From positions 1 through 59,912 of IMG/VR virus record IMGVR_UViG_3300034092_003926: a DNA stretch of 59,912 bases. One strand, 5' to 3'. The notes below the pieces were generated by a model. That model had not been told where the DNA came from and did not search any database. It was given only the letters and a program-made list of their open reading frames with translations. Below, in pieces: positions 5,247 to 59,572 of this stretch. A program made the translations under genes and the position numbers. The stretch is from a virus. Its lineage: Duplodnaviria > Caudoviricetes. The first letter of the stretch is position 1; every line of letters begins with the position of its first letter.

Positions 5247-5297
5247 GCAACTATATACCGCTTCATGTCCATTCTTAAGTGGGCTATGTTCTCACTT
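5237..5297 (+). other. Candidate recoding element (translational bypass or mini-intron) in dnaE
   Basis: Removing TAAGTGGGCT (5276-5285) restores H-V-H-S-M-F-S-L-L-D-G. Three alternative hairpins cover the site. Confidence 0.6.
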
Positions 5298-7127: not shown

Positions 7128-7303
7128 TCAAAAAATTTAATGACGTAGAAAACAATACTGTGTTTAAAATAAATGGCATGGAATATACAAAAGTACCAAC
7201 AGTAAAAGTTAGTTGTTGCAAAAGTATAAATGCCATTCAAGTTGATAATACTAATAATAGAACATTTATTCAACCCTCAACAGATGTAGAAGTGAATGAT
7301 TAA
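7124..7303 (+). CDS. Small hypothetical protein (59 aa), missed by the ORF track
   Basis: GTG start overlapping the dnaE-N stop (GTGA), AAGGAG SD at 7111-7116; MIKKFNDVENNTVFKINGMEYTKVPTVKVSCCKSINAIQVDNTNNRTFIQPSTDVEVND; overlaps the next ATG. Confidence 0.75.
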   Translation: MIKKFNDVENNTVFKINGMEYTKVPTVKVSCCKSINAIQVDNTNNRTFIQPSTDVEVND

Positions 7304-7985: not shown

Positions 7986-7987
7986 CT

Positions 7988-13133: not shown

Positions 13134-13393
13134 AGTCATCATTAGGTATTCTAATACAAGATTTTTCTAATATTTCTGAAAAACTGAACCAAATAAAATC
13201 ATCTTTTAAAACATATGATGATTTTGTAATATTTACAGATTTTTTCATTAATAATAACAAAATTTATAACTATAGTATTTTTTCTACTTTCTACATGAAA
13301 TTTTTTCAAGGAAATGTTTTATTTTTAGATGAAAAGAGCTACGAAGAACACAAAGATAATATTGTTGGCCAGGCCATTTTATATAGGAATTAA
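13130..13393 (+). CDS. Hypothetical protein
   Basis: 87-aa ORF, ATGA-coupled, AGGTG SD. Confidence 0.6.
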   Translation: MKSSLGILIQDFSNISEKLNQIKSSFKTYDDFVIFTDFFINNNKIYNYSIFSTFYMKFFQGNVLFLDEKSYEEHKDNIVGQAILYRN

Positions 13394-13395
13394 AT

Positions 13396-14190
13396 ATGAA
13401 TTACGATAAACTCACCGAGTCTGCTAAAAAGACATTATTAGTAAAAGAATATGAAGATAATAAAAAATCATTTAAAGATATAGCCAATGAATATGGAACA
13501 TATCCTAACAAAGTAAGACGAGATGCCATAAAACTAAAAATTAAAATTAGAGATAAAAGCGAAGCACAGAAAAATGTTTTGGCTCTTGGTAAGGCTGAAC
13601 ATCCTACTCAGGGCAAAGAAAGATCAGAAAGTATCAAGAAAAAAATAGGTCAAAGTGTTATGGAAGCATGGGATAATCTTGATAATGATGAACTAGAAAA
13701 TAGAAAGAAAAAAGCCAGAGACAATTGGAATAAACTACCAGAAGATATAAAAGAAAATATATTGCAAGAGGCGAATAATGCTGTTAGGAAAGCTAGTCGT
13801 GTTGGCTCAAAACTGGAACATCATTTGTTAAATAGTCTGGTGAACGACGGTTTCAAGGTTGACTTTCACAAAGAACAAAATCTATTGAACACCAAGTTGC
13901 AAATAGATCTGTTTTTACCTAAAATGAATGTAGCAATAGAAGTTGACGGCGTTAGTCATTTTGAACCAGTGTGGGGAGAAGATAGTCTAAAAAGAAATAA
14001 AAAATACGATAATAAGAAAACGGGTCTTATTCTTGGAAAGGGCATGGTATTGATTAGAGTTTTACAAAAAAAGGATTATTCTAAATCTCGTGGTGATTGT
14101 ATGTATCAAGAATTAAAAGCTGTTCTTGAAAAAATCAAAAATAAATTTCCAGAACCAGATAATAGGATTATAATAATAGGAGATAAATAA
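13396..14190 (+). CDS. DUF559/Vsr-like endonuclease with N-terminal HTH and NUMOD3-like segment
   Basis: SKLE...QIDLFLPKMNVAIEVDGVSHF...D..K...G..LIRV; N-terminal SFKDIANEYG HTH; GKERSESIKKKIG. Confidence 0.7.
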   Translation: MNYDKLTESAKKTLLVKEYEDNKKSFKDIANEYGTYPNKVRRDAIKLKIKIRDKSEAQKNVLALGKAEHPTQGKERSESIKKKIGQSVMEAWDNLDNDELENRKKKARDNWNKLPEDIKENILQEANNAVRKASRVGSKLEHHLLNSLVNDGFKVDFHKEQNLLNTKLQIDLFLPKMNVAIEVDGVSHFEPVWGEDSLKRNKKYDNKKTGLILGKGMVLIRVLQKKDYSKSRGDCMYQELKAVLEKIKNKFPEPDNRIIIIGDK

Positions 14191-31623: not shown

Positions 31624-34600
31624 CTATACTGGATAGGCTCCGTAAGTTGATCTTCCTCCTGCACCAGACGAACCAAGCTCACCACCACTTCTATTCCATT
31701 CTTTTGCCATCTTATTATTTACTTCTTTTTGAATCAACTCTACCATACGAGGTTCTAATGTGCTCCAGATTTTGTCTCCAGTGATTGTAACTTGTACTGT
31801 GTGTCTTCCTTGCATCTCTATTCTTTCTGGTATTTTTGGTAGTTTATTTGCAATATTTTCCATACGAGTTACATAAGAACCAAAACTATCCATACTAGAT
31901 TTAAATTGTGTCAAAAATGATTTGGTATTTTCATCCAAAGTTAATAGATTAACAGATGCTGTTCCGGTATTTGGCGGAGATGTTGTATCTGTTGTTGCTG
32001 TTCTTGCTGGTATTGGGGGTGCGCCGTTAGGAGTTGTAGCTTGTTGTTTTTGTTGTAATGCTTTTAAATCATTCAAGTATTCTGACAAAAATTGCTGTTG
32101 CTGTTGCGGCATATCTTCAATAGGTCGAGTTTGCGTTGATGCAACAGGATATCTCTGTCCTCTGCCTTCACGAGCTGCTTCTGCCCTGCGAGCCAAATCT
32201 TCTGATAATTTCATTTGACCTTGATCCCAATCATCTCCAAAATCAGGTAATGAGCCAAAAGTATTTTTATACTCTTCTTTGATTTTGTTCAATTCAACAA
32301 CTGCTGTTTCGTAGTCATCTTTTTCAAAGGGGTGCAGTTGATCAGAAGATGCTTTTGCAAATAAATGACGTTTATTGTATATTTTTTGTAGTCTATCTTT
32401 GAAACTTTTTACAACAAAGGGATTAGCTTCTGGACCAAGCCTAAATTCTGTAGCGTCAGTGGGCAAAGTCCCTGACGCAGCAGCTGACGCGGCGGCAGAA
32501 GGCAGAGCACTAGACGCTGGCGTACCTGTTACAGCATTAAGCTGCTTGGTTAGATCTTGCAATGCAGTAATCAATTTTATGTTTTGATCAGAGTATGACT
32601 TAATAATTGTTTTTTGAACTTCTCCTAATTTATCTATTGTCTCAATTCTTCGTTCTTCTTCTTCTTTGATCTTTGACGCAAAAGCATCTGCCATCTCATT
32701 GCTAAGAATTTTCTCCCAACTTTGTTTTTCGCCATCAAACATTCCTGCTGTTAATTTCATTATCTCTTCGGAATTAGGTAACGATCCCATCATACCTTTA
32801 ATAAGTATGCTTTCAATCTTTACGAGTTCCTGTTCTGGTAAACCTAATGATCCTTTCATTGTATCCCAGCCAGCAAAAGCCTTTGCAAAAAATTCTGGAT
32901 CCATCATACTAGCTTGACTAATAGCTTCGATATTACCGCCTTTTATAGCATCGGCAACTAATGTAGCAGCTTGTAGCTCTTGCTTTATTTGTACTCTTTC
33001 TTCAGGGTTAGCTGTTAATACTCTACGTGCAAATGATTTAGAATTAGCCGCCGTTCCTTGATAGCGTTGGAAGTCATTCATAATTTGAGCTGTTCGCTCG
33101 CTATTATTCGCTAGTTCTTCTAATGCTTGACTAAGATTATTAGCCTGCCTACCCAAAGCTGCTTCTTCTTCCATAAGTTTGGTAGCTTCTTGGAAACTAG
33201 CAGTTTCTTGTGCTTTTCTTTTTTGGGCTATTTCTTTATTAACTTTAGTTAATTCAGCATATATTGTTGTTGGATCAAGTGTTTGTCCAGCCCCACCAGC
33301 TTCGGCCAGTCTTCTAATTCTACTATCGGCAATATCTGCTCTATTAGCTGTTGGTGATCTTCCATAGATCTCATCAAGCATCATTGCTGATTCTAATCTA
33401 ATTTCATCTCCCTTGATAGTTAGCTCCAAACTTTTTTGCATAGCTTCGTTAATTTTATCTAAATTATTACCATATTGTGATAATTGGTCATTAGCGGCTT
33501 TAACTATATCTGATGCAGCTTTATTTGCAGTTTCAAATGTTTTCATAGCGGCTTGTAGTGCTGGAAATTCTTGAGCTAGTTCTTCAAAGCTTTTTCCTTG
33601 GCGACTTGTTGTTTCATTAACAAGAGAATCTTCAATTTCTTTTAACAAGCTATCTTTTGCCGATCCTGATAATCCTGCTTTTTTAAATAAATCTTCTAGT
33701 TGTGCAGTAACGCCCTTAATGTCTTCTTTACTAGTATTTCTTAATATAGCTGGTAAATTTTGTTCTACTATTCTTTGCCCTTGCAGTGACTGCGTAAGTT
33801 TAGATGCATTATCGCCGCCACCAACAAGTCCAGAAATCCTATCCAAAACATTTTTAAATTCTGTATCAGAATAAGCTGATGAATTACCCAGTATGGCCTC
33901 GTCTCTCCTATTTACACTTCCAATTCTAAAATTACCGCTCATAGCTTCTGCTAATTCATTTACAACTATTTGAGATGCTTCCATTTCAATATTAAATCTC
34001 TCAGTAAGAGCGATCATTTTGTCAAAAATTTCGATCATGCTTTCTGTTTGTAAATTAACTTCTTTCATTACTGCTGTCATACGAGTTTGCAAATTAATTT
34101 GATTTTCTTGTTCTGCTGCTAGTTCTAAACCTCTTCTATATAGCTTTTCTTGGTCTTTTAATTCTTCTCTAATACGGTCGGTATCTCCGGCAAAATTTCT
34201 ATTGATCTCTGTAGTAGCTAAATTAATAGCAGCCGCTCTCTTGGCTGCATTTACTACATCAGCACCACCAGAAGTTGCAACAAAATCTGAAACTCTTTGA
34301 TTGCCCTTTATATCAAAACCAGAGTTGATCAAAGCTGATCTTTGTGCCTCTTCAATAAATTTAGTTCTTTCTCCTAATGCTTGTTTAGCAGCAGGGTTCT
34401 TTGCTGCTTCTTCAAACTTTTTGATACTATCATTAATTTCTTCTATTGAAGATAGTTTAATTTTTCTTTCAGCTAATTGTGAAACCGATTTGACATAATT
34501 CTCAACAGCCTTAAGCTGTCCTTCCAAAGCTTGATTGTCTATATCTTTTGTCCCTTGAACGAATCTATATATGCCGTATCCTAGAGCAGCTACACCAGCA

Positions 34601-37600
34601 GCAACTAAAATAGTTCCACCACTAAGAACCACAGCAGAAAATCCGGTAATAGATGCGGCTAAAGCTGTTATGCCTGTTGTTGCGGCTGTTGCTGCAATTC
34701 CGGCTCCAGCGGCTGCTCCAACAGCAGCACCTGTTGCCAATCCAGCACCACCAGAGGCTGCTTTCTCTCCAAAAGTACTTTGTGCCTGAATTGATAAATC
34801 ATCAATATTATTTTGTATACCTCCTACTGCCTTTAAAGCATTTTTATAGTTGGCCTCATTATCATATTTACTAAGATTATCAAGAGCCTTGCTAGCAACA
34901 TCTATACTTTCATTAAGCCTACCCATAGAATTTTCTAATTTTTGTGTTTGAACACCAGTTAAAAATCCTTCTATAGCTCCCGCTATTGTTCCCCCTATTA
35001 CTCCTATAACCCCACCTATTTCTCCACCAAGTTGTTGGCCTAATGTACCTAATGATAAAGCCTGAGAGCCTGCCCCTCCTATAGCCCCAATAACCCCCGC
35101 TCCTGTTTCACTGGTACCAAACAATTTATTTTCTTTAATAGTATCTGATAGAATACTTAATCCACCCGCTATAATAGCTGGAGCACCACCTATAGCTTTT
35201 GCTGCGTCTCCTAAAGGACCAGGAAGTTTACCAAGAGCATCGTTAAGTCCATCAATACCAAGATTTTTAAATGCTTGTGCTCCTCCAAAAATATTAGCTC
35301 CTATTGCTGATTTTTTAAATTCTAAAGCTAATGAAGGAGCTAAATCTCCAACCAGCCCAAAGTCTTGAGCAGCTCGCCCTGATTGTTTGTATTCTGCTAT
35401 TTCTAAGTCTTTTGTCGTTGCCTTTACAGCGTCTGTTAGTCCACCAAATTCGCTAGACAATTGTTCTTGTGCTTGTTTTAATGCTTCTGTTTCATCTATA
35501 GTATTATTAAAAGCCTCTTTTAGAGGCCCTAATGATGCTGTTGTTGCTTTAAGCATATCATCCAGTGAATTGCCAGCTTTAATTCCTTTAATAATTTCAC
35601 CAATTGCTTTATTAACATCTGTTGCTTTAGCTGTTGGATTAAGTTCTTTTATTCTTTCTGATAATCTATTAGCAAATGCTTTACGAGATTCTCTATCTCC
35701 TAAACCTTTTGCTGATGTTCTCAAAATATCAGTTCTAAGATTAGCTCTTGTTTCTTTTCTTTCTTGTGTTATTTTTAAAGCATTGTTTATTGTTTGTGCT
35801 TTGAGTTGAGCTTCAAAAGCTTTTAAGCTAATGCCAGCTCTTTTTGCTGCATCTTCAAAAGCCGCTATAACTTCTGGGGTTGCTGTTCCACCACTAGCTA
35901 ATCTTTGAACATATCCTACTGGACCACCCTTATTGTATCCTTGTATTTTATCCGCCCTATTCATCTTATGAAGTTTAGCATAACCAATTTTTTGAGCAGC
36001 TTTTTTATTGATAACAAATTCGCCCGGAGTTAACAAAGCAGGCACAGTATCTTGTGGCGATCCTCCGTTGGCAAATTTTTTTCTTTTCTTTAACAGCGAA
36101 GGGTCGATATTTGGACCATAATCATACATTAGAGATGAAGCCATAGAGTCGGCCATCTCTTGTAATTGAACTAGATTACCAGCCTGCTTGAAATCTGCAT
36201 AATTACCAACATTATTTCCTTCTTGTTTTAAGCCACCTAATATATTATAACCAAAACCTCTTTTACGTTTACTTATTCTAAAATTCATTTCTGGATATTT
36301 ATCTAAAATTTCTTTTTTAATTTTTTCAAACTCTGACTCTCCAACTTTTCCTCCAAAAGCAAATTTTTCAATAAAATATCTTTGTGCTTCACCCCAAAGT
36401 CTGGTTAGTGCGCTACTATCATTTGTTCGTTTAGTATCTGTGGGTAATGTTGATTTAATTCCCCATTTGCTAGCACTGGGACCTAGACCTTTCGGAAAAT
36501 CTATTGGTCTATTAGGATCAGCATCGTCTGAAGAAACATTCACCCCTAAAGATTTAACAAGTTCTTCAAGAGCATACCCTTGCATAACAGCCATACTTTT
36601 AGATGATGATGCGTTACCTGTATCTATGCCTTTTGGTTCAGAGTACAGATATCCTTTCTTTCCCGCGCCCATAATAGCTTCAATATTTTGTAAATTATCA
36701 TCTATGAGTGTCTCCATCTCTGATAGATTGTTAACTTTATTTAATCCACCAGTAACACCAGTAATTTTGCTTTCTGGTATTGGGAGTTGAAGTTCTGCTA
36801 ATTTAGCTGCTAATAATGGAGCATTACTCGGCGGTCGCGCTGTAAGAACTCTAATACTATCCATTAATTGTGGATAATCTGTAATTCTGTTTGATAATTC
36901 TTTACCTAGCAAAGTCAATTCTGCATTAGCTAAAGCCTCTTTTACTTTTTCCAGATCATTATATGCTCTTATATCAATTCCACCATTAGGAGCAAAAATA
37001 TCTGCTCCTTTGACAAGAGTGTCATCAAAATCAAATGCTAATGGTCCACCAGTACCAAAAATATCAGTATATTGAAATTTTTCTGCTCCTCTGACCGAGA
37101 CTCCAGCAAGATCTTCTTGAATAGATTTAATAGCATCAGCATATCTTGTTGGTAAACTTTTTCTAACAACTTGTGTAAGAAATTTTTCTCCATTCTTACC
37201 TGTTAATTCTCTGGCATCACTAATGCTCTCATATCCTAACTGACCATTAGGGCCAAATAAACTAACTAAACCAAACTGATAGGCTCCACCGGCTGCCGCT
37301 CTCATATTTCTATCAAGTTGATTTCTTGCTGCCCCTTCTTTACCTTTTTTAACGCCTTCTGCTTCTCTTAATACCTTTTCTAAAAATGGAGCTAATCTTC
37401 CAGAGTTGGAATCTGCTCTTAAAGATCTGCTATCTAATAATTTACTACTTGTTCTAACGCCAGAAGCCTTGACAGCTTCAGCTACTGCTGCTGGCGCTAA
37501 ATCTTTAACACTAGTAGGACCACCAAGAGCTCTAATTCTTTCCAAAATACTATCATCAATTCTACTGGTTGTAGAAACTCCACCCTCAACAAATTTTTGC

Positions 37601-40497
37601 ACAATACCGCCGATAGCCATTTTTTTAGCAGCAAAATTACTAATTAGAGTATCTAAATTTTTACCAGAATAATCAAAGTCATCATATTCTTCTAATGCTT
37701 TATTAACAGATTGCCTTAGTCTTGTATTGTGGAAAGTTTTAGACAACGATCCTCCTGCTCTTACTGTTTTATAGTCAGAAAGTACAGGATCTTGTAGGGC
37801 GCTTAATAAATAATTATCTATGGCGGAGCCGTCTGTAATACTTGTCCATTGTTGCTCTCTTGCTGCTACCTCGTCAGCTTGTTTTGACATTTGTGCGGCT
37901 AGTGCAGCTTCTCTACCAAGTCTGGATGTTGCTCTTGCTGATTGTTTTTTGGGGGTTCCAAATGGCGCTACTATTTCTTTCCAGAACCCTCTTTTACCCA
38001 TATAGTTCACTAGTTCACTGTCTAGTTCTGGAATTATTCTTTCTTTTGGAACCTCAATAAATTCATTTCCTATGGCCATTCCTGCTCCACCAGTACTGAA
38101 AATATCAAAAGCTTGCTTTTTAGCATATGCTATTAATTGATCAGTACTTAGTTGAGCTAGTTCACTATCATCTAATTCTTTGATTTTGCTACGAGCACCA
38201 AGTTTTTTACCCATTCCACCATTTTTAAATTTTTGTATTAATCCACCACGATTTTTATTAATTGCATATAATACAGCAGTATTTTCTGGTGTATATTGAC
38301 TATTAAAGTCTGCATCTATACCGGATCTATATTTTAATTCAGCGGCTTTAAAGTCTCTACCAGTTTGTGCTTTAGTTAATCCTAATTTTTCTTTGAGACC
38401 TTTTCTAGCATTAAGATTTGGTATATCTGGAAATTTATTTTCTGGAGCATCAACACCGAATTCTTTATTTACAAAATTTTCAAAGAAATATCCTCTTATA
38501 GCTCCTTTACCACTGTTATTTATTTTTAATTTAGATATATCTCCATAGGCTATTGGCGGAGACTCTTTCATACCGGTTAAAGCGCCAGGTATTTTTTTCT
38601 TAAATACACTTCCTCCATCAGCATACTTATTCATTCTATGCAAATTACCAGTACCAATAGTTTCAACCGCTTTCTTTCGTATTACAAATTCCCCAGGGGT
38701 TAACATTGCTGGAACAGTATCTCTATTACCGCTTCCTGGAACAACACCACCAGTAGCAAAACCAGCAACTTTGCCACCACTATTAAATGTGGTTCCTTTA
38801 CGACTAATAGTACTATTAAGATTTTCTATAGCTTTAGTTAAAGTAGATAATGCTGATGTATTATTTTTAAGAGTTTCTGATGCTCTGCTTGTTGCTTCTG
38901 CGGTATCTCTGGTTCCAGAACCAGTTAAAGAAGCACCAAGATTACTTCCAACTGCTTTAGATCCACCTCCTTTACCAAACGAACCTAAAAAACCACCAGC
39001 AAATTCTGTAAGAGCCTTACCACCCTTAATAGTTCCTAAAATAGCTAGTGCTGGTAAGATTGGTTTAAATGCACCAGCTAATTTTATTAAAGCGCTACTT
39101 AAACCTATAACTATTTTAAAAAACGCCTGAAAGGTATCGCTTTGTCCTACTGTTTTGATCAAACCTAAAAATTCTTCTCTAACTTTAGCTAATTGAACAA
39201 CTAATGATTTTTGTGCTGTAGCCTGTGCTTCGCTTAAACTAGATGTTCCTCTTTGTGCAACTCCTAATGCTTTTTCAGCTTCGGCGAATTGTTGAATTAA
39301 TGGAATAACTTTACTGATCTGTCGGAACCCGCCCAGCTCTTCTACAATTTGTGCAAATCGCAAATCTCGCGGATCTAACTTATTAAGTTCTGCACTTAAT
39401 CTCTTAATAGCTTCAAATGGACCAACGAATTTACCATCTAGATCGGTAAGTTCAACACCAAATTCTCTTAAAAATTCTATAGTTTGTGGTCTTTGAATAC
39501 GCGTAAAAATGGTTCTTAAACCAGTAGCAATAGTTTCTGCGCTTTCACGTGTGGTTGCTCTTACGCTGGTAAAAACAGCAATAAATTCGTTTAAGGCATC
39601 TGTCCCTTGTGAAACACCAGTACTTGAAGCAGCAAATGCGCCACCAGCACGTTGTATAGCAGTAATAATATCTGATGATTCTACTGCGAACCCGGCAGCA
39701 ACAGCATTTATACTACCTAGAGCACTTTCTAAGTCTTTGGTTTGAATACCGAACTGTCTAATAGCAGCAATTGCACCTTCTGTAGTTTCAATAATATTAT
39801 CGAATGATGGTGCTAATTCTGTTTTCGCCAATGCCCCTAATGCTTGTTCGGTTTCTTTAGCACTAAGACCGGCCTGAGCTAATGTAACAGCAACTTCTGT
39901 TAATTTTTCACTACTAACACCAAGTGTAATAGATAGTCTAGTAATTTCTTTAGATAATCCTGATAGAGCAATAGCGCCATCTCCAGTAACTTGTCCTAGT
40001 CTTACCAATTGTTTATCAAATTCCAAAAACGATCTTAAGCCACTACTAACAGCTCCAATTAAAGCATAGATTCCTGTTGTAACAACACTGAAAGCAGCAA
40101 ATCGTTTAATCGCTAAAAACGATTGTTTTCCAAACTCTTCCATACTCGATGATGCAACTTTGAGATTTTTGGACGTTACAGCAGCATTTTTAGCAACGTT
40201 CTGTAATGATGATCCTGCTTGAGAAGATCCTCCTTTAACAGAAGATAGTGCTGTAGACAAACTTCTTAGAGAAACATTTAATTGATTGGTATTAGCTTTA
40301 GCATTAACTAAGACCCTATTCATTGCAATTAGTTTATTTTTAACATCATCAATAGACTTTGCTGCTTTTGGATCTAGTTTAAAGTTAACGTCAGCTTTAA
40401 CAGAACCAAGCTCTTTTTTAATTTTTGAAACAATAGGCTTAAGATTATTAGGCCCAGCTAAATTAATTTGTGCAGTAAGATTAAATGCTTTAGCCAT
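31624..40497 (-). CDS. Tail tape measure protein with internal cargo domains
   Basis: 2957 aa; TP901-type core (LAQAG, AETIATGLRTIFTRI, GGFRQ); Ala/Gly-rich hydrophobic segments; two DTVPAxLTPGEFV motifs; coiled-coil C-terminal third; follows tail tube and chaperones. Confidence 0.9.
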   Translation of the reverse strand: MAKAFNLTAQINLAGPNNLKPIVSKIKKELGSVKADVNFKLDPKAAKSIDDVKNKLIAMNRVLVNAKANTNQLNVSLRSLSTALSSVKGGSSQAGSSLQNVAKNAAVTSKNLKVASSSMEEFGKQSFLAIKRFAAFSVVTTGIYALIGAVSSGLRSFLEFDKQLVRLGQVTGDGAIALSGLSKEITRLSITLGVSSEKLTEVAVTLAQAGLSAKETEQALGALAKTELAPSFDNIIETTEGAIAAIRQFGIQTKDLESALGSINAVAAGFAVESSDIITAIQRAGGAFAASSTGVSQGTDALNEFIAVFTSVRATTRESAETIATGLRTIFTRIQRPQTIEFLREFGVELTDLDGKFVGPFEAIKRLSAELNKLDPRDLRFAQIVEELGGFRQISKVIPLIQQFAEAEKALGVAQRGTSSLSEAQATAQKSLVVQLAKVREEFLGLIKTVGQSDTFQAFFKIVIGLSSALIKLAGAFKPILPALAILGTIKGGKALTEFAGGFLGSFGKGGGSKAVGSNLGASLTGSGTRDTAEATSRASETLKNNTSALSTLTKAIENLNSTISRKGTTFNSGGKVAGFATGGVVPGSGNRDTVPAMLTPGEFVIRKKAVETIGTGNLHRMNKYADGGSVFKKKIPGALTGMKESPPIAYGDISKLKINNSGKGAIRGYFFENFVNKEFGVDAPENKFPDIPNLNARKGLKEKLGLTKAQTGRDFKAAELKYRSGIDADFNSQYTPENTAVLYAINKNRGGLIQKFKNGGMGKKLGARSKIKELDDSELAQLSTDQLIAYAKKQAFDIFSTGGAGMAIGNEFIEVPKERIIPELDSELVNYMGKRGFWKEIVAPFGTPKKQSARATSRLGREAALAAQMSKQADEVAAREQQWTSITDGSAIDNYLLSALQDPVLSDYKTVRAGGSLSKTFHNTRLRQSVNKALEEYDDFDYSGKNLDTLISNFAAKKMAIGGIVQKFVEGGVSTTSRIDDSILERIRALGGPTSVKDLAPAAVAEAVKASGVRTSSKLLDSRSLRADSNSGRLAPFLEKVLREAEGVKKGKEGAARNQLDRNMRAAAGGAYQFGLVSLFGPNGQLGYESISDARELTGKNGEKFLTQVVRKSLPTRYADAIKSIQEDLAGVSVRGAEKFQYTDIFGTGGPLAFDFDDTLVKGADIFAPNGGIDIRAYNDLEKVKEALANAELTLLGKELSNRITDYPQLMDSIRVLTARPPSNAPLLAAKLAELQLPIPESKITGVTGGLNKVNNLSEMETLIDDNLQNIEAIMGAGKKGYLYSEPKGIDTGNASSSKSMAVMQGYALEELVKSLGVNVSSDDADPNRPIDFPKGLGPSASKWGIKSTLPTDTKRTNDSSALTRLWGEAQRYFIEKFAFGGKVGESEFEKIKKEILDKYPEMNFRISKRKRGFGYNILGGLKQEGNNVGNYADFKQAGNLVQLQEMADSMASSLMYDYGPNIDPSLLKKRKKFANGGSPQDTVPALLTPGEFVINKKAAQKIGYAKLHKMNRADKIQGYNKGGPVGYVQRLASGGTATPEVIAAFEDAAKRAGISLKAFEAQLKAQTINNALKITQERKETRANLRTDILRTSAKGLGDRESRKAFANRLSERIKELNPTAKATDVNKAIGEIIKGIKAGNSLDDMLKATTASLGPLKEAFNNTIDETEALKQAQEQLSSEFGGLTDAVKATTKDLEIAEYKQSGRAAQDFGLVGDLAPSLALEFKKSAIGANIFGGAQAFKNLGIDGLNDALGKLPGPLGDAAKAIGGAPAIIAGGLSILSDTIKENKLFGTSETGAGVIGAIGGAGSQALSLGTLGQQLGGEIGGVIGVIGGTIAGAIEGFLTGVQTQKLENSMGRLNESIDVASKALDNLSKYDNEANYKNALKAVGGIQNNIDDLSIQAQSTFGEKAASGGAGLATGAAVGAAAGAGIAATAATTGITALAASITGFSAVVLSGGTILVAAGVAALGYGIYRFVQGTKDIDNQALEGQLKAVENYVKSVSQLAERKIKLSSIEEINDSIKKFEEAAKNPAAKQALGERTKFIEEAQRSALINSGFDIKGNQRVSDFVATSGGADVVNAAKRAAAINLATTEINRNFAGDTDRIREELKDQEKLYRRGLELAAEQENQINLQTRMTAVMKEVNLQTESMIEIFDKMIALTERFNIEMEASQIVVNELAEAMSGNFRIGSVNRRDEAILGNSSAYSDTEFKNVLDRISGLVGGGDNASKLTQSLQGQRIVEQNLPAILRNTSKEDIKGVTAQLEDLFKKAGLSGSAKDSLLKEIEDSLVNETTSRQGKSFEELAQEFPALQAAMKTFETANKAASDIVKAANDQLSQYGNNLDKINEAMQKSLELTIKGDEIRLESAMMLDEIYGRSPTANRADIADSRIRRLAEAGGAGQTLDPTTIYAELTKVNKEIAQKRKAQETASFQEATKLMEEEAALGRQANNLSQALEELANNSERTAQIMNDFQRYQGTAANSKSFARRVLTANPEERVQIKQELQAATLVADAIKGGNIEAISQASMMDPEFFAKAFAGWDTMKGSLGLPEQELVKIESILIKGMMGSLPNSEEIMKLTAGMFDGEKQSWEKILSNEMADAFASKIKEEEERRIETIDKLGEVQKTIIKSYSDQNIKLITALQDLTKQLNAVTGTPASSALPSAAASAAASGTLPTDATEFRLGPEANPFVVKSFKDRLQKIYNKRHLFAKASSDQLHPFEKDDYETAVVELNKIKEEYKNTFGSLPDFGDDWDQGQMKLSEDLARRAEAAREGRGQRYPVASTQTRPIEDMPQQQQQFLSEYLNDLKALQQKQQATTPNGAPPIPARTATTDTTSPPNTGTASVNLLTLDENTKSFLTQFKSSMDSFGSYVTRMENIANKLPKIPERIEMQGRHTVQVTITGDKIWSTLEPRMVELIQKEVNNKMAKEWNRSGGELGSSGAGGRSTYGAYPV

Positions 40498-40585: not shown

Positions 40586-41446
40586 TCACGAAGCTGGTGG
40601 GGTGATTTGTTTTGGTGCATTATCTGTCTTTTCCTTTTCTATACTCTTATTATCCAAGACGACAGGATTACCATCATCATCAATAAATGGTTTGAATTCA
40701 AATACATAATCACCAGCAGAATCTACAACATTACCATCTTTATCAACAAATTGACCATTCTCATTAATAAATCGACCATTTTCATCAATCAATCGACCGT
40801 TTTCATCAACCAACTTACCTTCTTTATTTATTAACCTTAATTTTGTATCAACAAATTTATAATCCAATAAAAATTTATTTTCTGGTAACTTTTCTTCATA
40901 ATCACTATCTAGACCATATAACAAACCAGCTAAATTTTGTGCAGCTAATATAGCTATTAATTCAGACGATTTATTAATATAGTCTTCATAACTAGCAAAA
41001 TACTTTTGATTATTATCCTTATACACCGTACAAGCTGAAACAAGATAGTTAAATCGGGCATTATCTGCTTGTCCTTCGGCTGTATGGGTGTCTAAATTGG
41101 TCTTTACACTAATTAGATCTCTGAGTTTTTCTCTATCTCTTCTCATCTCAACAGCAATTGTTTTGGCCTGATTTAATGAGATTCCACCCTTTGCTAAAGA
41201 TCTTTCGCCTTCCAATATCTTGCTTTGTAATTCATTAAATTGTTGTTGTTTTTTGTCATCCCATAAACCCTGATCTATTAAAAGATCATCAAGTTTAGCT
41301 CTAACAACCGCTTTGGCTTTTAGTGCTTCGCTGAAAGCTTGATTATAAACCTTTGTGGCCTCTTTTTGATCGTTTAAAGAAGGAGAACGAACTAAAAACT
41401 CAACGTTCTTACCGTCTACCTCTGCCTTGAAAGATCTTGTTAACAT
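40586..41446 (-). CDS. Probable tail assembly chaperone
   Basis: Between tail tube and tape measure; helical N-part; C-terminal 7-aa repeats (EGKLVDENGRLIDENGRFINENGQFVDKDG). Confidence 0.55.
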   Translation of the reverse strand: MLTRSFKAEVDGKNVEFLVRSPSLNDQKEATKVYNQAFSEALKAKAVVRAKLDDLLIDQGLWDDKKQQQFNELQSKILEGERSLAKGGISLNQAKTIAVEMRRDREKLRDLISVKTNLDTHTAEGQADNARFNYLVSACTVYKDNNQKYFASYEDYINKSSELIAILAAQNLAGLLYGLDSDYEEKLPENKFLLDYKFVDTKLRLINKEGKLVDENGRLIDENGRFINENGQFVDKDGNVVDSAGDYVFEFKPFIDDDGNPVVLDNKSIEKEKTDNAPKQITPPAS

Positions 41447-44020: not shown

Positions 44021-45229
44021 CTATAAATTAAAGTCTTTTCTAGTTGACCAATTATTATTATAAATCCAATATACTAATTTATATGGTTTGGTAAATGATT
44101 CGAATTTAGCAGTAACGATAGGCTGATATTCGGTCAAATCCATTCTAAAAATAACATTTCCATTTATGTCTTCTATGCCTAGATAAATAAATTGGTATTC
44201 TTCTTCTGGTTGAGGTATATCTAAATTTAGATTATATTTAGTAAGAGATATATTCCACCACTCATTATTATCGTTAATTGGTGGATCTACGCCCTTAATA
44301 GTATCAGGATGTAAGGATCTATTTTTAAAATTAATTCCAGCATATAATTCATAATCATGATGAGATCTTACGTTGCCGAGTCCATAAATTCCTAAGTCTA
44401 TATTATTATCTTCTTCCTGTAGCATATGCCTTAATCTTCGCTTACTATCATTATCCATTTCCCACCATGGTTTTTCTACCAATCCGGACTTTTTATTTTG
44501 TTCATTAAAATCGGTCCAATGTTTGGTTCTTCCTTCTCTAGTATATTCGTGCCAAATAACCGTTTTATGGGGATGGTACAGGTCATATCCTAGCGTGTAT
44601 GATCGTATACTTAGACTAATCTCATCTCCAGCAAAATAAATATTAGGATCATATTTATATTCTTCACAATGTTGTCCTATAGTAAAGAAAAAATGGCCAC
44701 TAACAAAACGCGCTGGTATAGGTTTAGTTAAACTTTCCCAGTTGGTTATTGTATGCGGTCTAAACAAAATAGTTCCGCCAAGGGTAAAATTAGAAGCTAC
44801 CATTTTATAGGGTTCTATATTTAGTATTTTATTTTCTTGCGAAGAATACATTCCAACGTATGATGTGATAATAGGTTTTTCTGAGTCTACCATACTCATC
44901 ATATTTATTAATTCTTCATCCCAGTTCGGTAAAAATCTATGATGAGAATCTAATTGTAGTGTAAAATCTTCTCCATTCCACAGCTTTTGAATTTCGCTTC
45001 TTGCCCAACATAATCCTTTACTATTTTGCCATTGAATATCGATAATTTTAAATCTTGAATCCTTTTTAAAGTCATCAAGATTATCCCATAAATCCTCGTT
45101 GGAGTGCTGCCAACAAATACCAAAAATCAGATTCTCTGGATATTTAGCTTTGCTAATGCAGTCATTGATGGTTGGGATTAGTTCTGGATCACGATAACTA
45201 GCAATTTGTACAAATATTTTAGAATTCAT
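44021..45229 (-). CDS. GT60-like (Gnt1/GlcNAc family) protein N-acetylglucosaminyltransferase
   Basis: IFVQIASYRDPEL..T, GICWQ, SKGLCWAR, LQLDSHHRF..NWD (DSH motif), SGHFFF, YDP..YF.GDEI...RSYT.GYD..HP....WH.Y. Confidence 0.8.
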   Translation of the reverse strand: MNSKIFVQIASYRDPELIPTINDCISKAKYPENLIFGICWQHSNEDLWDNLDDFKKDSRFKIIDIQWQNSKGLCWARSEIQKLWNGEDFTLQLDSHHRFLPNWDEELINMMSMVDSEKPIITSYVGMYSSQENKILNIEPYKMVASNFTLGGTILFRPHTITNWESLTKPIPARFVSGHFFFTIGQHCEEYKYDPNIYFAGDEISLSIRSYTLGYDLYHPHKTVIWHEYTREGRTKHWTDFNEQNKKSGLVEKPWWEMDNDSKRRLRHMLQEEDNNIDLGIYGLGNVRSHHDYELYAGINFKNRSLHPDTIKGVDPPINDNNEWWNISLTKYNLNLDIPQPEEEYQFIYLGIEDINGNVIFRMDLTEYQPIVTAKFESFTKPYKLVYWIYNNNWSTRKDFNL

Positions 45230-50115: not shown

Positions 50116-53100
50116 TTATACATAAGTTATTGACATATTAACTGTTGAACTACTGGCTGGAAAACCAGAAGCTTGAACAATTATATTGGTAGAAGATGCA
50201 GTAATAGTTAAAGTAGATGTATTAAACGTGGCATCGTTCCATTTGTCTGTGATATTTGTTCCTACAATAGCAGCATTTCCGGTTCCAACCCTCTTAACTA
50301 ATCCTGTAATATTCCATGATGCTGTGGCTGAATTTGTAGCATTGTATACGCTAGCTTTTAAATTAAAGTGTTTGGCAGAAGAGGGTGGTATAGATATAGT
50401 CCATAGTGTAGTATTGGATGAGGACAATATGGTTGTTGTTGTTACAGTTTGCGTGGAGATAGTGTTAGAGTCTATATCAAATAATAATGTGGCGCCTCCG
50501 GCTATGTTGCTTCCAATTTTTAAAGTAGGAGTGATGATAGCCCCATAGTCACCAAGCAATTCACAGGCGGTTCCGGCAGTTCCTCCAGCATTATTAACTA
50601 TCAATCCATTGGTATCCATTGTTACAGAATTACCAGGGGCATCTAATTTTTCTCCAACTCCAAGAACATTAAATATGGCAGTTCCATTTGTTATCCAGGA
50701 ATAATCGTAACCATTTTCGCTTGGGCCAATTTGTAAATTATTATGACACCATAAAGTACCATTTACAGATAATTTAGCCGTATCTTCTGCTGTATTATTA
50801 ATGAAGTTATAACTAGTAGTATTTATGCCAACATTTCCAACATTATTAATTCTAACTCTTTCTATGCCACTAGTACTAATAGAGAAAACATTTGATGCTG
50901 GACTAAATAATCCGGTATCAGAATCATTAATAAACTCAAATGAAGGAAGCAACGCTGAACCAGATCCGGCTATAAATGATCCACTTGATCTTATATCTCC
51001 GTTAGTACTAATTCCACTACTAAATATTCCACTTCCAATAACGTGAATTTGGGCATTTGGAGTTGTGGTTCCTACGCCAAATCTTCCTCTATTATCAAAA
51101 GTAGCAACTTCTGAGTAATAATTATAAATTTTTAATCTACCAGAAGATGCTACATCTATATACTGATCACCCGGTCCTTTACCCCTATAACCTATAATCA
51201 TTGATCTAGTATTATTATCCAAAGTTATCCAACTAGCAGCGTCATTAAAGGAATAAATTGAAGCATTATTTCCTTCGCCATTATTAGTTGGATTTAATAT
51301 ACTGAAGCCGTTTGGTAAAAACATTTTATTAGCATTATCAACACCAATAACGTCTGTACCATTTCTGGATATAAAAAATTGATTATCATAATTTCCAGGA
51401 CCACCAATTCTAAAATCTATTCTAGGATTATTAGTACTACCTCCGCTATTTAATCTCAATAAAGAACCAAAGGCTCTTTCATTAACATCAGGGAAAAGAC
51501 CGCTAGCGCCACTAATATGAACAAAAGTATGAGGCGTTACGGCTTGGGATATCCAAGTTGGGAAACCACTAATGCCTACTCCTAATCTGCCACTAAAAAG
51601 TCCTGTTCCTATTACATGTAGTTGACCACTAGGAGTGCTTGTTCCTATTCCGACACTCCCTTCGACAAGTAACCCATTTGTAGGAGCAGAGACATTATAA
51701 TTTGCACCAATAGTTGCTGCACCATTGACAGCTAATCTATTTAGTGGGCTAACATGCCCCATGCCAACTCTATCATTACCCTTAAGTATAAATGCAGTAG
51801 AAGAACCGATATAGGTATCTGAAGAAGCGCTAGGTCTTTCTATTCTAACATTATCTGCTGTATCACAACGAATAATATTAAACTCAGAACCTGCGGATGT
51901 AGAACTACGAATTGAAACGTTATTTGGTATAAATAAGCCACTAGTAAATATACCGCTTCCTATTACATGAAGTTGGCTGGCTGGACTTGATGTTCCTATT
52001 CCTAATCTATTACTAGTACTATCCCAAATTAATTGATTACTATCAGCCAGTAAACCACTGGTACTACTCCAGTAGGGAATATGATTGGCAACTCCGGTTC
52101 CAGTAACGGGATTCGTGAGCGTGGCCTGTTTGCTATCTAATTGGGTTTGAATATTACTACTAACACCACTAACATAACTTAATTCTGTTAATGTTGGAGA
52201 AGTTAAAGATACTATATCTTTATCATTATTAAATATTGCAATAGTATCTGCTGTTTCATTGTTTAATCTTAAATAGCCATCTACATGAGTATTATTTTGT
52301 AAAAAAATGGTAATATCATTAATAATCATACCAGCAGTAGATGATGATATAGTTACCGGATCAGTTCCGCTGATTGTAGAAGCAAAAATTGTATCATTAA
52401 AAGTTTTAATACCACTAATAGTTTGATTGCCAGTTGTATATACTAAATTAGTAGGTATTTGGGCCACAACAGCATCATTAAAATCACCAATATCAGTAGA
52501 AACAAGACTTAAATCAGTTTTAAAATTTTCTTTAGTAATATATAATAATGATTGAGAAGAAACGTCAGGAGTATTTGATCCATCAAAAATAGGAATCCAT
52601 CCAAAAGTAGAACTAGAACTAGCAAATAAACTTAATCCTCCACTAAACACAGATTCTGATAAAAATGTTTTAATCCCACTAATAGTTTGATTACCAGTAG
52701 TATAGACCAAAGTTGAGGGAAGAAGTCCACTAACACTGCTAGCAAAATCGGTAATGTTTGATGATGAGTGAGTATGGCCACTAACACTTACCACAGTACC
52801 ATTGACGGTTAATCCATTAGCGAAGTTATGAATTGCATTAACTGTTCGTGCATTATCCACATGTAAATATTGAGAGTGATCATCATCACCTAATCCAAAT
52901 AAATTTCCATGATCATTTTGAGTAACTCCAGCAATAGTACTAATTACGGCTACTCGTATATCAAGAATACTAAGTAAAGTACATTTAGGAACATTTGTAT
53001 AATCACTATCTCCAGCAAATATTAATCGATAAAGAGGTTTAACTTCACTTAATGGAAGATTAGTAAGATTAACATCACTCCAAGAGTTATTGCTTTCAGC

Positions 53101-54195
53101 CGATCCTTGATTGCTATCAATTCTTTGACCCATAATACTAATTATAGGATCATCAATCTGATTAGTTGCGAGAATCCATACTGCAAAGTATCTTGTTTGT
53201 CCACCGGGGCTAACGTAAGGAATTGTCCAAGTTCCATCAGTTAATAAGTTATATTGTGGCCCATTAGCATCATATTTAACAGGATAGTTCGTGGCAGTAT
53301 TCTTAACCCACTGACCAGTAGTTCCTTCATGATAATAAACGGGAATTTGAGCAATCGGACTTAACTCTTGACAGAACGGATCAGCACTAGAACTATCAGT
53401 AATATTTATCTCAATATCTTCTTGATAAAGAGTACCATTACCAATTGATATAGTTGCATGACTATTACTAGACCCATTTCCGCCTAAAACATAATCACTA
53501 ATACTCAAACCATCAACATATTGCACACCAAAAGTATTATGAATCCACTTGTGAGTACTAGTATCCATCACAATACCATGACGCTCTTCAGCAAAGAAAG
53601 TCATTTGTCCACTAGGGCCAACTCCACTATTCCAAGCTACATATGCGATAGGAATATCAATATCAAAATCAAATCTTGTAGTTTTATTTGATATTTGATT
53701 AGTAGCAGTATCAAAATGAATATAATTAATTTGAGTAAGATTTGGTATAGTTAAACTATCACCACTAGTTTTAACAACTTTGACGCCTTTATTATAATAA
53801 CTATATGAACTTCCTGTAGGTTCTATCCTAAATACATTTCCACTAACACTAATTCTACTATCAGTTCTATTAATAAATCCTTGAGGCTGTTGACTATCAG
53901 CATGAGCCAGATTAGTAGAAGCTATTGTATAAATTCCACTATTATTAGTTACTGAAATATCATATCCACCACTAATATTGAAATTAGTTATATCAGAAAT
54001 CAAATGGGTATGGCCGCTGATGCTAACTCCAGTACCATTTACTCGTAAACTATTAATAAAATTTCCACTATTAGCTGTAAAAATGCCACTAAGATTAACA
54101 ATATTACCGCTTGGAATTAGTATAGTATCTCCAATAGCGTTATCGCTAACATTAATAACCTGAGATAATACTGCGTTTTTTCGTGATAGTGTCAT
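50116..54195 (-). CDS. Tail fibre/adhesin-like virion protein
   Basis: Repeats G(I/V)GT.(S/T)P..QLHVIG.G, SGHTH twice, LVYTTGNQTISGIKTF twice, GLGDDDH.QY, PSF.F..D.DTGLF. Confidence 0.75.
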   Translation of the reverse strand: MTLSRKNAVLSQVINVSDNAIGDTILIPSGNIVNLSGIFTANSGNFINSLRVNGTGVSISGHTHLISDITNFNISGGYDISVTNNSGIYTIASTNLAHADSQQPQGFINRTDSRISVSGNVFRIEPTGSSYSYYNKGVKVVKTSGDSLTIPNLTQINYIHFDTATNQISNKTTRFDFDIDIPIAYVAWNSGVGPSGQMTFFAEERHGIVMDTSTHKWIHNTFGVQYVDGLSISDYVLGGNGSSNSHATISIGNGTLYQEDIEINITDSSSADPFCQELSPIAQIPVYYHEGTTGQWVKNTATNYPVKYDANGPQYNLLTDGTWTIPYVSPGGQTRYFAVWILATNQIDDPIISIMGQRIDSNQGSAESNNSWSDVNLTNLPLSEVKPLYRLIFAGDSDYTNVPKCTLLSILDIRVAVISTIAGVTQNDHGNLFGLGDDDHSQYLHVDNARTVNAIHNFANGLTVNGTVVSVSGHTHSSSNITDFASSVSGLLPSTLVYTTGNQTISGIKTFLSESVFSGGLSLFASSSSTFGWIPIFDGSNTPDVSSQSLLYITKENFKTDLSLVSTDIGDFNDAVVAQIPTNLVYTTGNQTISGIKTFNDTIFASTISGTDPVTISSSTAGMIINDITIFLQNNTHVDGYLRLNNETADTIAIFNNDKDIVSLTSPTLTELSYVSGVSSNIQTQLDSKQATLTNPVTGTGVANHIPYWSSTSGLLADSNQLIWDSTSNRLGIGTSSPASQLHVIGSGIFTSGLFIPNNVSIRSSTSAGSEFNIIRCDTADNVRIERPSASSDTYIGSSTAFILKGNDRVGMGHVSPLNRLAVNGAATIGANYNVSAPTNGLLVEGSVGIGTSTPSGQLHVIGTGLFSGRLGVGISGFPTWISQAVTPHTFVHISGASGLFPDVNERAFGSLLRLNSGGSTNNPRIDFRIGGPGNYDNQFFISRNGTDVIGVDNANKMFLPNGFSILNPTNNGEGNNASIYSFNDAASWITLDNNTRSMIIGYRGKGPGDQYIDVASSGRLKIYNYYSEVATFDNRGRFGVGTTTPNAQIHVIGSGIFSSGISTNGDIRSSGSFIAGSGSALLPSFEFINDSDTGLFSPASNVFSISTSGIERVRINNVGNVGINTTSYNFINNTAEDTAKLSVNGTLWCHNNLQIGPSENGYDYSWITNGTAIFNVLGVGEKLDAPGNSVTMDTNGLIVNNAGGTAGTACELLGDYGAIITPTLKIGSNIAGGATLLFDIDSNTISTQTVTTTTILSSSNTTLWTISIPPSSAKHFNLKASVYNATNSATASWNITGLVKRVGTGNAAIVGTNITDKWNDATFNTSTLTITASSTNIIVQASGFPASSSTVNMSITYV

Positions 54196-58180: not shown

Positions 58181-59572
58181 TTAGCCAAAAATCAATGCGT
58201 TTATCACAGATTCGTCAGAAAAAGATTCTCCAATAAACGAACTCGATCTTTTTACAAGAGTTCCGTCTGTTTTTATTAAAAGCAAGTCAGTTTCTATTGT
58301 ATCATTAGGAACGCCAGATATCATAACATTTTGACTAAATATTCCACTTCCCGAGATTCTAAGTTCACCGCTAACATCTAATAATGATCCATTAAAAAGA
58401 AGATTGGGTTGCGCAATAATTCCACTTGTACTACCATCATTAACTAATAATCTATTAGCTCCAGGACTAGAAACAACAACTCCATCACTAGAAAAATTTG
58501 TCCCAGGTACTAAACTTAAATATTCTATAACACTGCCACTGGGAGCAGGAGTTGTTAAAGTAAAAGATGTTCCATTGGACGCTGTATAGTCGCCACTAGC
58601 AAATAATTTAACACCATTTAAAAATACATCTAGCGAACCAACAGTATATCCTCCAGAAACATTAAATGTTCCACTAGAAGATGTTAATAAAAATGCTCCA
58701 CGACTTACTGGATTTACTCCTCCGCCAATATCGCCGCTACTAGAAATAATAAATATTCCACTATTATTAGATACTATTATATTAGCTCCAGCAACTATAT
58801 CTTTTACTGGAATTAAACCACTAACAGTACTGCCAAAATTAGTTATATCCACAGATGCATGTGTGTGACCACTAGTACTAACATTAATATTATTAACGCT
58901 TAAAAATGTAAAATTTCCACTACTACTCGGTAGCCACAACCCACTAGAACTGTTATATTGTAAAAATTGTCCATTCGTCGCTCCTGTTGTAGCAACATTA
59001 TGAAGTTCTTCTAATTCGTATCCATTCTGAATTTTAACCTCAATAACTCCCTCTTGAGCATGACTACGAATGATTGTTCCAACAAAAACCATATGATAAG
59101 GAGCGTATGGCTTAGTAGTGGTAATGCCCCCAGAAACTGTTGGACTAAGCCACAAAGCTGTTCCATTAGTATTAGGATTGAACTGGGTTGTATTTACATT
59201 AACTAACGCGCCGTTAATAATAACACTTCCAGTATCTTGATCTAATATATCTGTAGCAGTAATTCCGTATGTCTTACTAGATGAAGCTTCTCCACTAGCT
59301 AATGCTAGTCCTACTGTTGGCTTGTCTCCGTGACCACCAGTAATATAAACCGCACTCATTTTAGGTATAGTGGATCCAGTATTATTAAATACCACGGTAC
59401 TTAACGAGCTTGCACTAAGATATCTTGTTTCGTCCCACTGAGAGCCTAATCCTATTTTTAATAAATTAGTATCAGTTTCAAATCCTGGTTCTCCACTGGC
59501 CAATACTGGATTAGTATTTGTCCAATCGTCAGCGGTTCCTCTACGTATTTGTATTTGATTTTTTATAGCCAT
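58181..59572 (-). CDS. Fibre-like protein with Mtd_N/hyaluronidase-type N-terminal module
   Basis: IQIRRGT..DW...NPVLASGEPGFETDT..LKIG; ELEELHNV; LDVFLNGVKL...DYTA.NG; ends ALIFG. Confidence 0.75.
   Translation of the reverse strand: MAIKNQIQIRRGTADDWTNTNPVLASGEPGFETDTNLLKIGLGSQWDETRYLSASSLSTVVFNNTGSTIPKMSAVYITGGHGDKPTVGLALASGEASSSKTYGITATDILDQDTGSVIINGALVNVNTTQFNPNTNGTALWLSPTVSGGITTTKPYAPYHMVFVGTIIRSHAQEGVIEVKIQNGYELEELHNVATTGATNGQFLQYNSSSGLWLPSSSGNFTFLSVNNINVSTSGHTHASVDITNFGSTVSGLIPVKDIVAGANIIVSNNSGIFIISSSGDIGGGVNPVSRGAFLLTSSSGTFNVSGGYTVGSLDVFLNGVKLFASGDYTASNGTSFTLTTPAPSGSVIEYLSLVPGTNFSSDGVVVSSPGANRLLVNDGSTSGIIAQPNLLFNGSLLDVSGELRISGSGIFSQNVMISGVPNDTIETDLLLIKTDGTLVKRSSSFIGESFSDESVINALIFG

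Follow-up and report, generated by a model that had tools for sequence, protein, structure and literature searches.

A giant phage tape measure protein with a mosaic block of folded cassettes between two copies of a glycine-flanked module

The tape measure gene and its two modules

The window analysed here is the whole of a metagenomic virus record from IMG/VR (IMGVR_UViG_3300034092_003926; Duplodnaviria, Caudoviricetes), 59,912 bases long and estimated to represent about 43% of the genome. A single open reading frame (ORF) on the minus strand, 31624..40497, encodes a protein of 2957 amino acids (aa), here P0001. Pfam family PF10145 (PhageMin_Tail) matches aa 183-389 of this protein with an E-value of 1.2e-21 and 77.9 bits, compared with the Pfam cut-off of 33.2 (85.2 bits in a second scan), and over the first 560-870 aa there are matches to several PHROG tape-measure families, with E-values down to 1.2e-20. 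By these matches, the ORF is a tape measure protein (TMP). It holds the whole of a region that an initial annotation, made from the letters of the window, had described as a cargo polyprotein with enzyme-like domains strung between repeated xxxGG motifs. The region comprises two copies of a module of about 70 aa and, between them, a series of cassettes, one of which has the predicted fold and the conserved catalytic residues of a HAD phosphatase. The features of the gene are listed below from the N to the C terminus, with model confidence given as the predicted local distance difference test (pLDDT).

TMP ORF (P0001), 31624..40497, minus strand: 2957 aa, matching PF10145 and the PHROG TMP families
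N-terminal region, aa 1-565, 38803..40497, minus strand: PhageMin_Tail at aa 183-389 (nucleotides (nt) 39331-39951) and a glycine-rich stretch at aa ~490-530
Module A, aa 565-636, 38590..38805, minus strand: FNSGG-x4-FATGG, the DTVPAMLTPGEFV core with two helices (aa 608-626), and YADGG; profile score 94.9 bits
FNSGG/FATGG, aa 571-584, 38746-38787, minus strand
DTVPA motif 1, DTVPAMLTPGEFV, aa 593-605, nt 38683-38721, minus strand
YADGG, aa 625-629, 38611-38625, minus strand
Cassette S1, aa 641-750, 38248..38577, minus strand: pLDDT mostly below 50; rare among relatives
NRGG..KFKNGG, aa 749-761, 38215-38253, minus strand: lone GG doublet NRGGLIQKFKNGG at the S1/S2 junction, patterned like the flanking elements of the module consensus
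Cassette S2, aa 762-959, 37621..38214, minus strand: folded alpha+beta (aa ~770-960), pLDDT 70-93, of no known family
MAIGG..KFVEGG, aa 960-973, 37579-37620, minus strand: lone GG doublet MAIGGIVQKFVEGG at the S2/S3 junction
Cassette S3a, aa 974-1140, 37078..37578, minus strand: helical bundle at aa ~977-1065 with pLDDT 90+ (model residues 412-500), then low confidence
Cassette S3b, aa 1150-1290, 36628..37050, minus strand: predicted HAD-superfamily phosphatase domain, alpha/beta, pLDDT 91-98
Cassette S3c, aa 1301-1377, 36367..36597, minus strand: extension that travels with the HAD domain and adjoins S3b in nearly all architectures; pLDDT 50-60
KFAFGG, aa 1378-1383, 36349-36366, minus strand: S3/S4 junction
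Cassette S4, aa 1384-1474, 36076..36348, minus strand: small alpha+beta domain, helix-strand-strand-strand-helix (aa 1387-1460), pLDDT 81-94
Module B, aa 1471-1541, 35875..36087, minus strand: KFANGG, the DTVPALLTPGEFV core (two strands and two helices), and YNKGG-x7-LASGG; profile score 89.8 bits
KFANGG, aa 1474-1479, 36061-36078, minus strand
DTVPA motif 2, DTVPALLTPGEFV, aa 1483-1495, nt 36013-36051, minus strand
YNKGG..RLASGG, aa 1521-1537, 35887-35937, minus strand
C-terminal 1416 aa, 31627..35874, minus strand: Gly/Ala-rich hydrophobic stretches at aa ~1740-1985; poorly conserved in relatives

Every xxxGG motif and both DTVPAxLTPGEFV motifs of the initial annotation are found in the TMP where it had placed them, and their number is above chance. 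F..GG occurs eight times in aa 566-1545, compared with a mean of 0.47 and a maximum of 5 in 2000 shuffles, and [KRQ][FL]..GG occurs five times (mean 0.25 and maximum 3 in the shuffles). The two DTVPA motifs are 890 aa apart, and the span from FNSGG to RLASGG is 967 aa.

Both DTVPAxLTPGEFV motifs are the cores of the ~70-aa module. A profile hidden Markov model (HMM) of the module, made from 415 unique copies, gives exactly two matches in the TMP, modules A and B, and none near its C terminus. The consensus is approximately ..xxGG-x5-FxxGG-x(5-8)-DTVPAMLTPGEFVINKKAAQKIG..L..IN-x(3-6)-YxxGG-x6-LxxGG.., with GG doublets on both sides of the core. Each doublet consists of a five-residue amphipathic stretch between glycine pairs, where the stretch ends in F and is followed by xxGG. 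The lone doublets NRGGLIQKFKNGG and MAIGGIVQKFVEGG, together with KFAFGG, correspond to this flanking element without the core. AlphaFold2 predicts the core of module B as a hairpin plus two helices, with pLDDT 54-72. When three chains of module A were modelled as a complex from a 12-row alignment, the score was 0.04, compared with a mark of 0.42; we count this neither for nor against self-association. At the DNA level, the two module cores share 73% identity over 95 nt and the four KFxxGG sites are similar over only 20 nt, which makes the copies old duplicates and not a recent repeat.

The number of modules per protein ranges from one to eight in 174 proteins, and many relatives have one module ~90-150 aa from the C terminus. 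At the nucleotide level, the region matches none of 50,697 phage records. A protein search of the same records retrieved only the short module, in 104 records (86 from Gordonia phages, plus cyanophage and others); among the best 40 of these, 33 are annotated as tape measure proteins and two as cyanophage virion 'lysozyme'. The presence of the module in Gordonia phage TMPs agrees with the initial remark that a single copy of the motif is common in such proteins. In Synechococcus phage S-SCSM1 (MK867354.2; locus L002, 1255-4107), a T4-like cyanophage, the module lies inside a 950-aa virion 'lysozyme' beside baseplate-hub genes. The module is therefore not limited to siphophage TMPs.

Cassettes and their exchange among relatives

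Queried with aa 560-1545 of the TMP, a set of 5.8 billion clustered proteins yielded 837 matches, of which the best 120 are TMP-sized (1897-5154 aa) and cover 6%-100% of the query. An exhaustive HMMER search with aa 630-1478 against 1.84 billion representatives yielded 93 matches, 83 of them at least 1508 aa long. The short homologues resemble fragments; P0143, for example, is nearly identical to the row of relative P0053. Judged from these searches, the cassette families are nearly confined to giant TMPs.

We determined the presence of each segment in 173 relatives; since these were gathered by their similarity to this very region, all frequencies are conditional on that recruitment. The N region (aa 1-565) is found in 158 of them, with 46-83% identity among the rows listed. 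Between the modules, S1 (aa 641-750) is present in 5, S2 (aa 751-973) in 53, S3a (aa 974-1140) in 20, S3b (aa 1141-1300) in 121, S3c (aa 1301-1383) in 123 and S4 (aa 1384-1474) in 26 of the 173. Segments C1, C2 and C3 of the C-terminal part are found in 48, 96 and 6 relatives, respectively, with 22-65% identity among the rows listed.

The initial annotation had taken the GG motifs to be cassette boundaries, and this is where the alignments break. The ends of 635 BLAST high-scoring segment pairs cluster at the motifs, with 113 ends at aa 630-639, 31 starts at aa 740-769, 58 starts at aa 950-969 followed by 15 ends at aa 970-979, 68 ends at aa 1370-1399, 114 starts at aa 1460-1479 and 122 ends at aa 1520-1549. 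By architecture we mean here the series of named cassettes and unassigned sequence that lies between module 1 and module 2. The 160 relatives with at least two modules show 38 such architectures, none of which equals that of the present TMP; some have the cassettes in reversed order. Modules 1 and 2 are separated by ~0 to 2476 aa (median 849). This comparison across relatives, which had been proposed as a check, thus reveals extensive domain shuffling among TMP homologues, with cassettes that vary in number, kind and order between conserved modules. A count of cassette families, attempted by splitting at the GG motifs and single-linkage clustering, was not used because the segments are unevenly cut; 489 of 619 segments fell into one cluster.

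The closest relative, P0002, shares 71-82% identity with the TMP in the common cassettes, 62% in the N region and 27-32% in the C region, as expected if cassettes move between backbones that have diverged. We considered an artefact of assembly or gene fusion and rejected it because more than 150 independent metagenomic relatives have the same layout of N region, module, cassettes and module. A survey of phage protein mosaicism describes a sequence-level mosaic signal in TMPs and reports no genuine recent case as confirmed (PMC10684548); relative to that account, the present TMP stands out as a clear example of mosaicism at the level of domains.

Some relatives, P0126 and P0136 among them, are 5000-7279 aa long; some of these exceed 7000 aa and have up to eight modules and two HAD copies. 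If all of such a >7000-aa protein measured length, the corresponding tails would be longer than 1 micrometre.

The cassettes were modelled with AlphaFold2 from alignments of 29 and 30 sequences. Model 1 comprises module A, S1, S2 and S3a, and model 2 holds the HAD domain and S4. In these models S2, the first half of S3a, the HAD domain and S4 are confidently folded, in line with the initial description of the segments as globular rather than coiled-coil. That description does not extend to S1, aa 1066-1140 and S3c (aa 1296-1385), which all have pLDDT below 60 and may be disordered or unmodelled.

The clearest cassette is S3b, which we assign to the HAD-superfamily phosphatases on its predicted fold and its motifs. 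A Foldseek search of the PDB with model 2 gave seven matches at E<=1e-3, and those listed are almost all HAD phosphatases or HAD-like proteins, with probabilities of 0.80-1.0. The fold neighbours include phosphoserine phosphatase, a deoxyribonucleotidase-like protein, AphA, the 3'-phosphatase of T4 Pnkp (TMt 0.54), the HAD domain of Legionella Lem4 and MDP-1; identity of the domain to solved structures is 11-20%. The 30-sequence alignment shows little or no variation in any of the four HAD motifs: motif I (D1156-F-D1158-D-T1160), motif II (T1219), motif III (K1254) and motif IV (D1266-D1267). We examined the same positions in 125 copies of the domain from 123 of the 174 proteins, down to ~30% identity. 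Both aspartates of motif I are kept in 124 copies and its threonine in 123, T/S1219 in 124, K1254 in 123, D1266 in 123 (plus one E) and D1267 in 124, and the deviating row is a partial match. S3b is thus predicted to be a catalytically intact HAD-family phosphomonoesterase, with a fold nearest to the nucleotidase, AphA and T4 Pnkp-phosphatase types. The fold neighbours act on nucleotides, nucleic-acid ends and phosphoproteins.

A second enzyme-like cassette is observed in relatives. In a local search, an ADP-ribosyltransferase (ART)-like cassette was found in 19 of the 173, always between modules, where it replaces other cassettes or is added to them. Pfam PF03496 (ADPrib_exo_Tox) scores above its cut-off in P0053 and P0101 over the same interval as the cassettes. 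All 19 rows keep the (F/L/V/I)S(T/S)S motif, most also have an acidic-x-E motif, and the canonical arginine position is not clear. Of the 'enzyme-like domains' of the initial annotation, one segment of this TMP, the HAD domain, therefore stands, along with the ART-like cassette of relatives; in the other segments of this TMP no enzyme could be recognised. Taken together, the description of the protein as a mosaic, enzyme-bearing TMP is well supported. In the phage TMP literature, searched by title and abstract, we found no description of a HAD or ART cassette array.

The same data bear on two explanations that need no host-directed effector. The length of a tail is set by its TMP, and the cassettes could be spacers and hinges that pack the lumen or tune its length and do nothing in the host, so that their variability would reflect adaptation of tail length and assembly. 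The spread in total length among relatives, from ~1900 to 7279 aa, fits this idea, as do the confinement of the families to TMPs and the fact that most cassettes have no recognisable activity. Spacers, however, would not be expected to keep seven HAD catalytic residues in 123-124 of 125 copies down to ~30% identity, nor the (F/L/V/I)S(T/S)S motif and, in most rows, the acidic-x-E motif of the ART-like cassette. We regard structural filler as quite unlikely.

Alternatively, the HAD domain could serve the phage itself, either while tails or virions are assembled or by acting at the channel on nucleotides or on the ends of the phage DNA as it enters. Its fold neighbours include the T4 Pnkp 3'-phosphatase, deoxyribonucleotidase-like proteins and AphA, a weak PHROG match points to a deoxyribonucleotidase, and the phage encodes two glycosyltransferases and a dNMP kinase. 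Nevertheless, the TMP has no kinase or ligase partner, an assembly enzyme needs no stoichiometric place in a structural protein, and relatives place ART-like domains, typical of host-directed modification, in the same slot. A phage-directed role of the domain therefore seems very unlikely to us.

Probable cargo delivery and possible proteolytic processing

We favour, with moderate confidence, a different explanation. TMPs fill the tail lumen and exit ahead of the DNA. It is therefore most likely that the mosaic folded block of this giant TP901/lambda-type TMP travels as ready-made protein cargo and reaches the envelope or cytoplasm of the host when infection begins. The N-proximal third of the protein has been enlarged by this mosaic block of folded domains (aa ~640-1475), inserted between two ~70-aa modules that each consist of a GG doublet, the DTVPAxLTPGEFV hairpin with two helices, and a second GG doublet. 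Single GG doublets mark the cassette junctions, at which relatives have swapped, gained or lost cassettes. The block would be ejected with the TMP and act as tethered or released early effectors, following the logic of polyvalent proteins. By analogy with the ejection of TMPs in lambda and T5, both the ejection of the block and an effector or anti-defence function are plausible.

In a stronger form, TMPs of this kind would be programmable multi-effector injectors, which bring swappable pre-made enzymes (HAD phosphatase, ART-like and many orphan domains) into the cell and use the GG joints for both recombination and release or unfolding. Counter-defence or takeover activities would in that case arrive in the host ahead of any phage gene expression; the gpH cleavage region of lambda would then be the single-copy ancestor. 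This we consider possible, and put forward tentatively. The GG doublets themselves could be flexible hinges, strands for inter-chain or tube pairing, recombination joints or protease sites.

Several observations weigh against cargo delivery. The case for exit of this block from the virion, and for its action in the host, is one of analogy. Three or six copies of folded domains of 140-220 aa would have to be accommodated in the tail lumen and pass through it. Promiscuous effectors are usually shared across delivery systems or with free-standing genes; in the 93-match HMMER search, the cassette families are shared with neither. Only one of the roughly six cassettes of this TMP has a recognisable activity, and the others are orphan domains. 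For model 1, the one that contains S2 and S3a, Foldseek found nothing at E<=1e-3 in either the PDB or BFVD, although weak single-domain relatives could be missed because the model is multidomain with a mean pLDDT of 60.6. The ESM Atlas gave no usable match for S2 and S3a, the Foldseek matches listed for model 2, in which S4 lies, are almost all HAD folds, and Pfam searches on six separate segments at E<=10 gave nothing meaningful. Even the HAD domain matches no Pfam family at E<=10 (searched with aa 974-1380), and its sole match to a sequence model is a weak one to PHROG 2643 (5'-3' deoxyribonucleotidase; E 0.004). The recruitment of the relatives by similarity to the region also limits what their frequencies can support.

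The initial annotation spoke of a polyprotein with possible cleavage sites at its cassette boundaries. In the full form of this idea, a protease would cut at the GG motifs and so release the cassettes as free proteins, either inside the tail or once they have been ejected. Indirect support comes from lambda. The tape measure protein gpH of lambda is the only sequence of solved structure that matches the region. In phmmer, module A aligns with residues 721-814 of gpH (E 7.8e-4), and the module profile picks out residues 728-784 (E 8.8e-4); this match is marginal but specific, the next-best PDB matches having E-values of at least 0.69. A second TMP, 8vjh_Q, shows a weak module match close to its C terminus (E 0.85). 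The gpH protein is cut in a glycine-rich region near its C terminus to give gpH* (~1-710) and gpHC (~690-853), as described in PMC12617516. The N-terminal part of gpHC (~690-817) is reported there as not resolved, and only residues 818-849 are described as visible, bound to gpI (PMC12617516, PMC10721106). From the overlap of the aligned segment with gpHC, the module corresponds to the start of gpHC, directly beside the gpH cleavage region. Counted from the alignment, FATGG of gpH lies at ~733-737, and the reported cut at ~690-723.

The resemblance of the module to the part of gpH just after the glycine-rich cleavage region is consistent with cleavage at the GG motifs, as is the conservation of doublets exactly at cassette junctions. 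Processing of TMPs at either end, or by internal loss, is described as common (PMC1796659) and has been proposed for myophages (PMC11972413). However, the exact site and the catalysis of gpH cleavage are stated to be not known even in lambda (PMC12617516). The doublets can be explained equally well as hinges or as short strands for inter-chain pairing, and the short homologues look like fragments of longer proteins. Furthermore, Pfam detects no peptidase domain in the TMP and 36 other ORFs of the window, in a record that represents ~43% of the genome; the 'late serine protease' that had been suggested as the processing enzyme thus finds no counterpart there. We consider a cleaved polyprotein rather unlikely; delivery of the block as pre-made cargo would work with tethered domains as well as with released ones.

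Gene neighbourhood and comparison with known systems

The ORFs on one side of the TMP gene encode 364, 349, 92 and 286 aa, and those on the other side 627, 634, 1583 and 1775 aa. This order, with small ORFs upstream and large ones downstream, fits a long-tail module and recurs at the locus of P0002 (L001), the closest relative and the one locus retrieved by a related-locus search of IMG/VR. The TMP neighbours have no family matches in Pfam and PHROG scans; nine tail-module neighbours searched against the PHROGs matched a glycosyltransferase and one family of unknown function, and nothing else. The 286-aa ORF directly upstream of the TMP (40586-41446, minus strand) has C-terminal tandem peptide repeats of the type DENGRLIDENGRFINENGQFVDKDGNVVD and a weak DUF3659 match (E 0.0011), below the cut-off.

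Further features of the window are listed here.

44021-45229, minus strand: glycosyltransferase of the GlcNAc type (Pfam E 1.3e-66; PHROG E 1.1e-105), within the structural gene block
10133-11779, plus strand: second glycosyltransferase, of the group-1 type
50116-54195, minus strand: 1359-aa ORF with two BppL_N (lower baseplate protein N-terminal) stretches (E 7.6e-7)
58181-59572, minus strand: 463-aa ORF that opens with an Mtd_N domain (major tropism determinant N-terminal; E 1.4e-13)
5265-9604, plus strand: DNA polymerase III alpha in two ORFs, with the PHP and NTPase domains at 5265-7127 and the finger, HhH and OB domains at 7988-9604
7296-7985: ORF for an RNase_T-type exonuclease, between the two polymerase ORFs
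12001-14000: G+C down to 0.252, compared with 0.31-0.38 elsewhere; the ORFs there have no Pfam match

The product of the 1359-aa ORF probably belongs to the baseplate or binds a receptor; the ORF is situated upstream of the tail genes and not downstream. Mtd is the target of diversity-generating retroelements in a Bordetella phage. In addition to the split polymerase, glycosyltransferases and dNMP kinase, the window encodes DnaB, a primase and SSB.

TMPs are usually seen as helical rulers, sometimes with a cell-wall hydrolase. If the cargo explanation is true, the TMP would be a general vehicle that carries proteins into the host at the very outset of infection, when phages are most exposed to host defences, and the orphan cassettes would form a defined pool of candidate early-acting phage proteins.

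Like known HAD phosphatases (NT5C-like, AphA, T4 Pnkp and Lem4), S3b has the predicted Rossmannoid fold and all four catalytic motifs. It differs from them in lying within a structural virion protein, in being followed by a conserved extension of ~80 aa (S3c) and in matching no Pfam HAD model.

The nearest known TMP is lambda gpH, which is processed, is ejected and forms a trans-envelope channel (PMC12617516). The two proteins share the FxxGG ... GEFV ... YxxGG module and a glycine-rich stretch before it. In contrast to gpH, where a single module lies ~70-125 residues from the C terminus near the tip-binding helix, the TMP has two internal copies, and this duplicated module brackets ~840 aa of folded cassettes, with up to eight modules in relatives. 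For gpH, the same source states 'no known enzymatic activity' (PMC12617516). The apparent tie between the junction motif and the gpH cleavage region offers a concrete place to look for the lambda site.

Enzymatic domains embedded in TMPs and acting at infection have been described before. Mycobacteriophage TMPs carry peptidoglycan-hydrolase motifs (motif 3 in TM4 gp17 and the Rpf motif in Barnyard; PMC1796659), and the C-terminal fragment of T5 pb2 (pb2C) is proposed to degrade the cell wall (as cited in PMC12617516). Those are single cell-wall hydrolase motifs, whereas here a multi-cassette block is found, with a predicted HAD phosphatase and, in relatives, ART-like domains; Pfam detects no muralytic domain in the TMP.

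Polyvalent proteins (Iyer et al. 2017, PMC5512222) are very large, rapidly reshuffled multidomain proteins with enzymatic domains that include ARTs; it is proposed that they accompany the DNA into the host and may undergo processing into separate parts. The term 'tape measure' does not occur in the main text of that report. Polyvalent proteins are packaged in the head or transferred by conjugation and are typified by MPTase and LPD domains, neither of which is detected in the TMP by Pfam. Here, the chassis is instead a tail TMP. They carry several effector enzyme domains per chain, in contrast to the one recognisable domain here, with the ART-like one added in relatives, and the junctions of the TMP, unlike theirs, have a dedicated repeated motif.

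Finally, the Sle1-type effectors of actinobacterial contractile injection systems (CIS) are related to tape measure proteins and combine a TMP-like scaffold with exchangeable domains ejected by a tail-like machine (PMC13277306). As described there, each has a single variable C-terminal functional domain and is a CIS cargo. The protein described here differs in carrying an internal array of several cassettes within the TMP of a phage.

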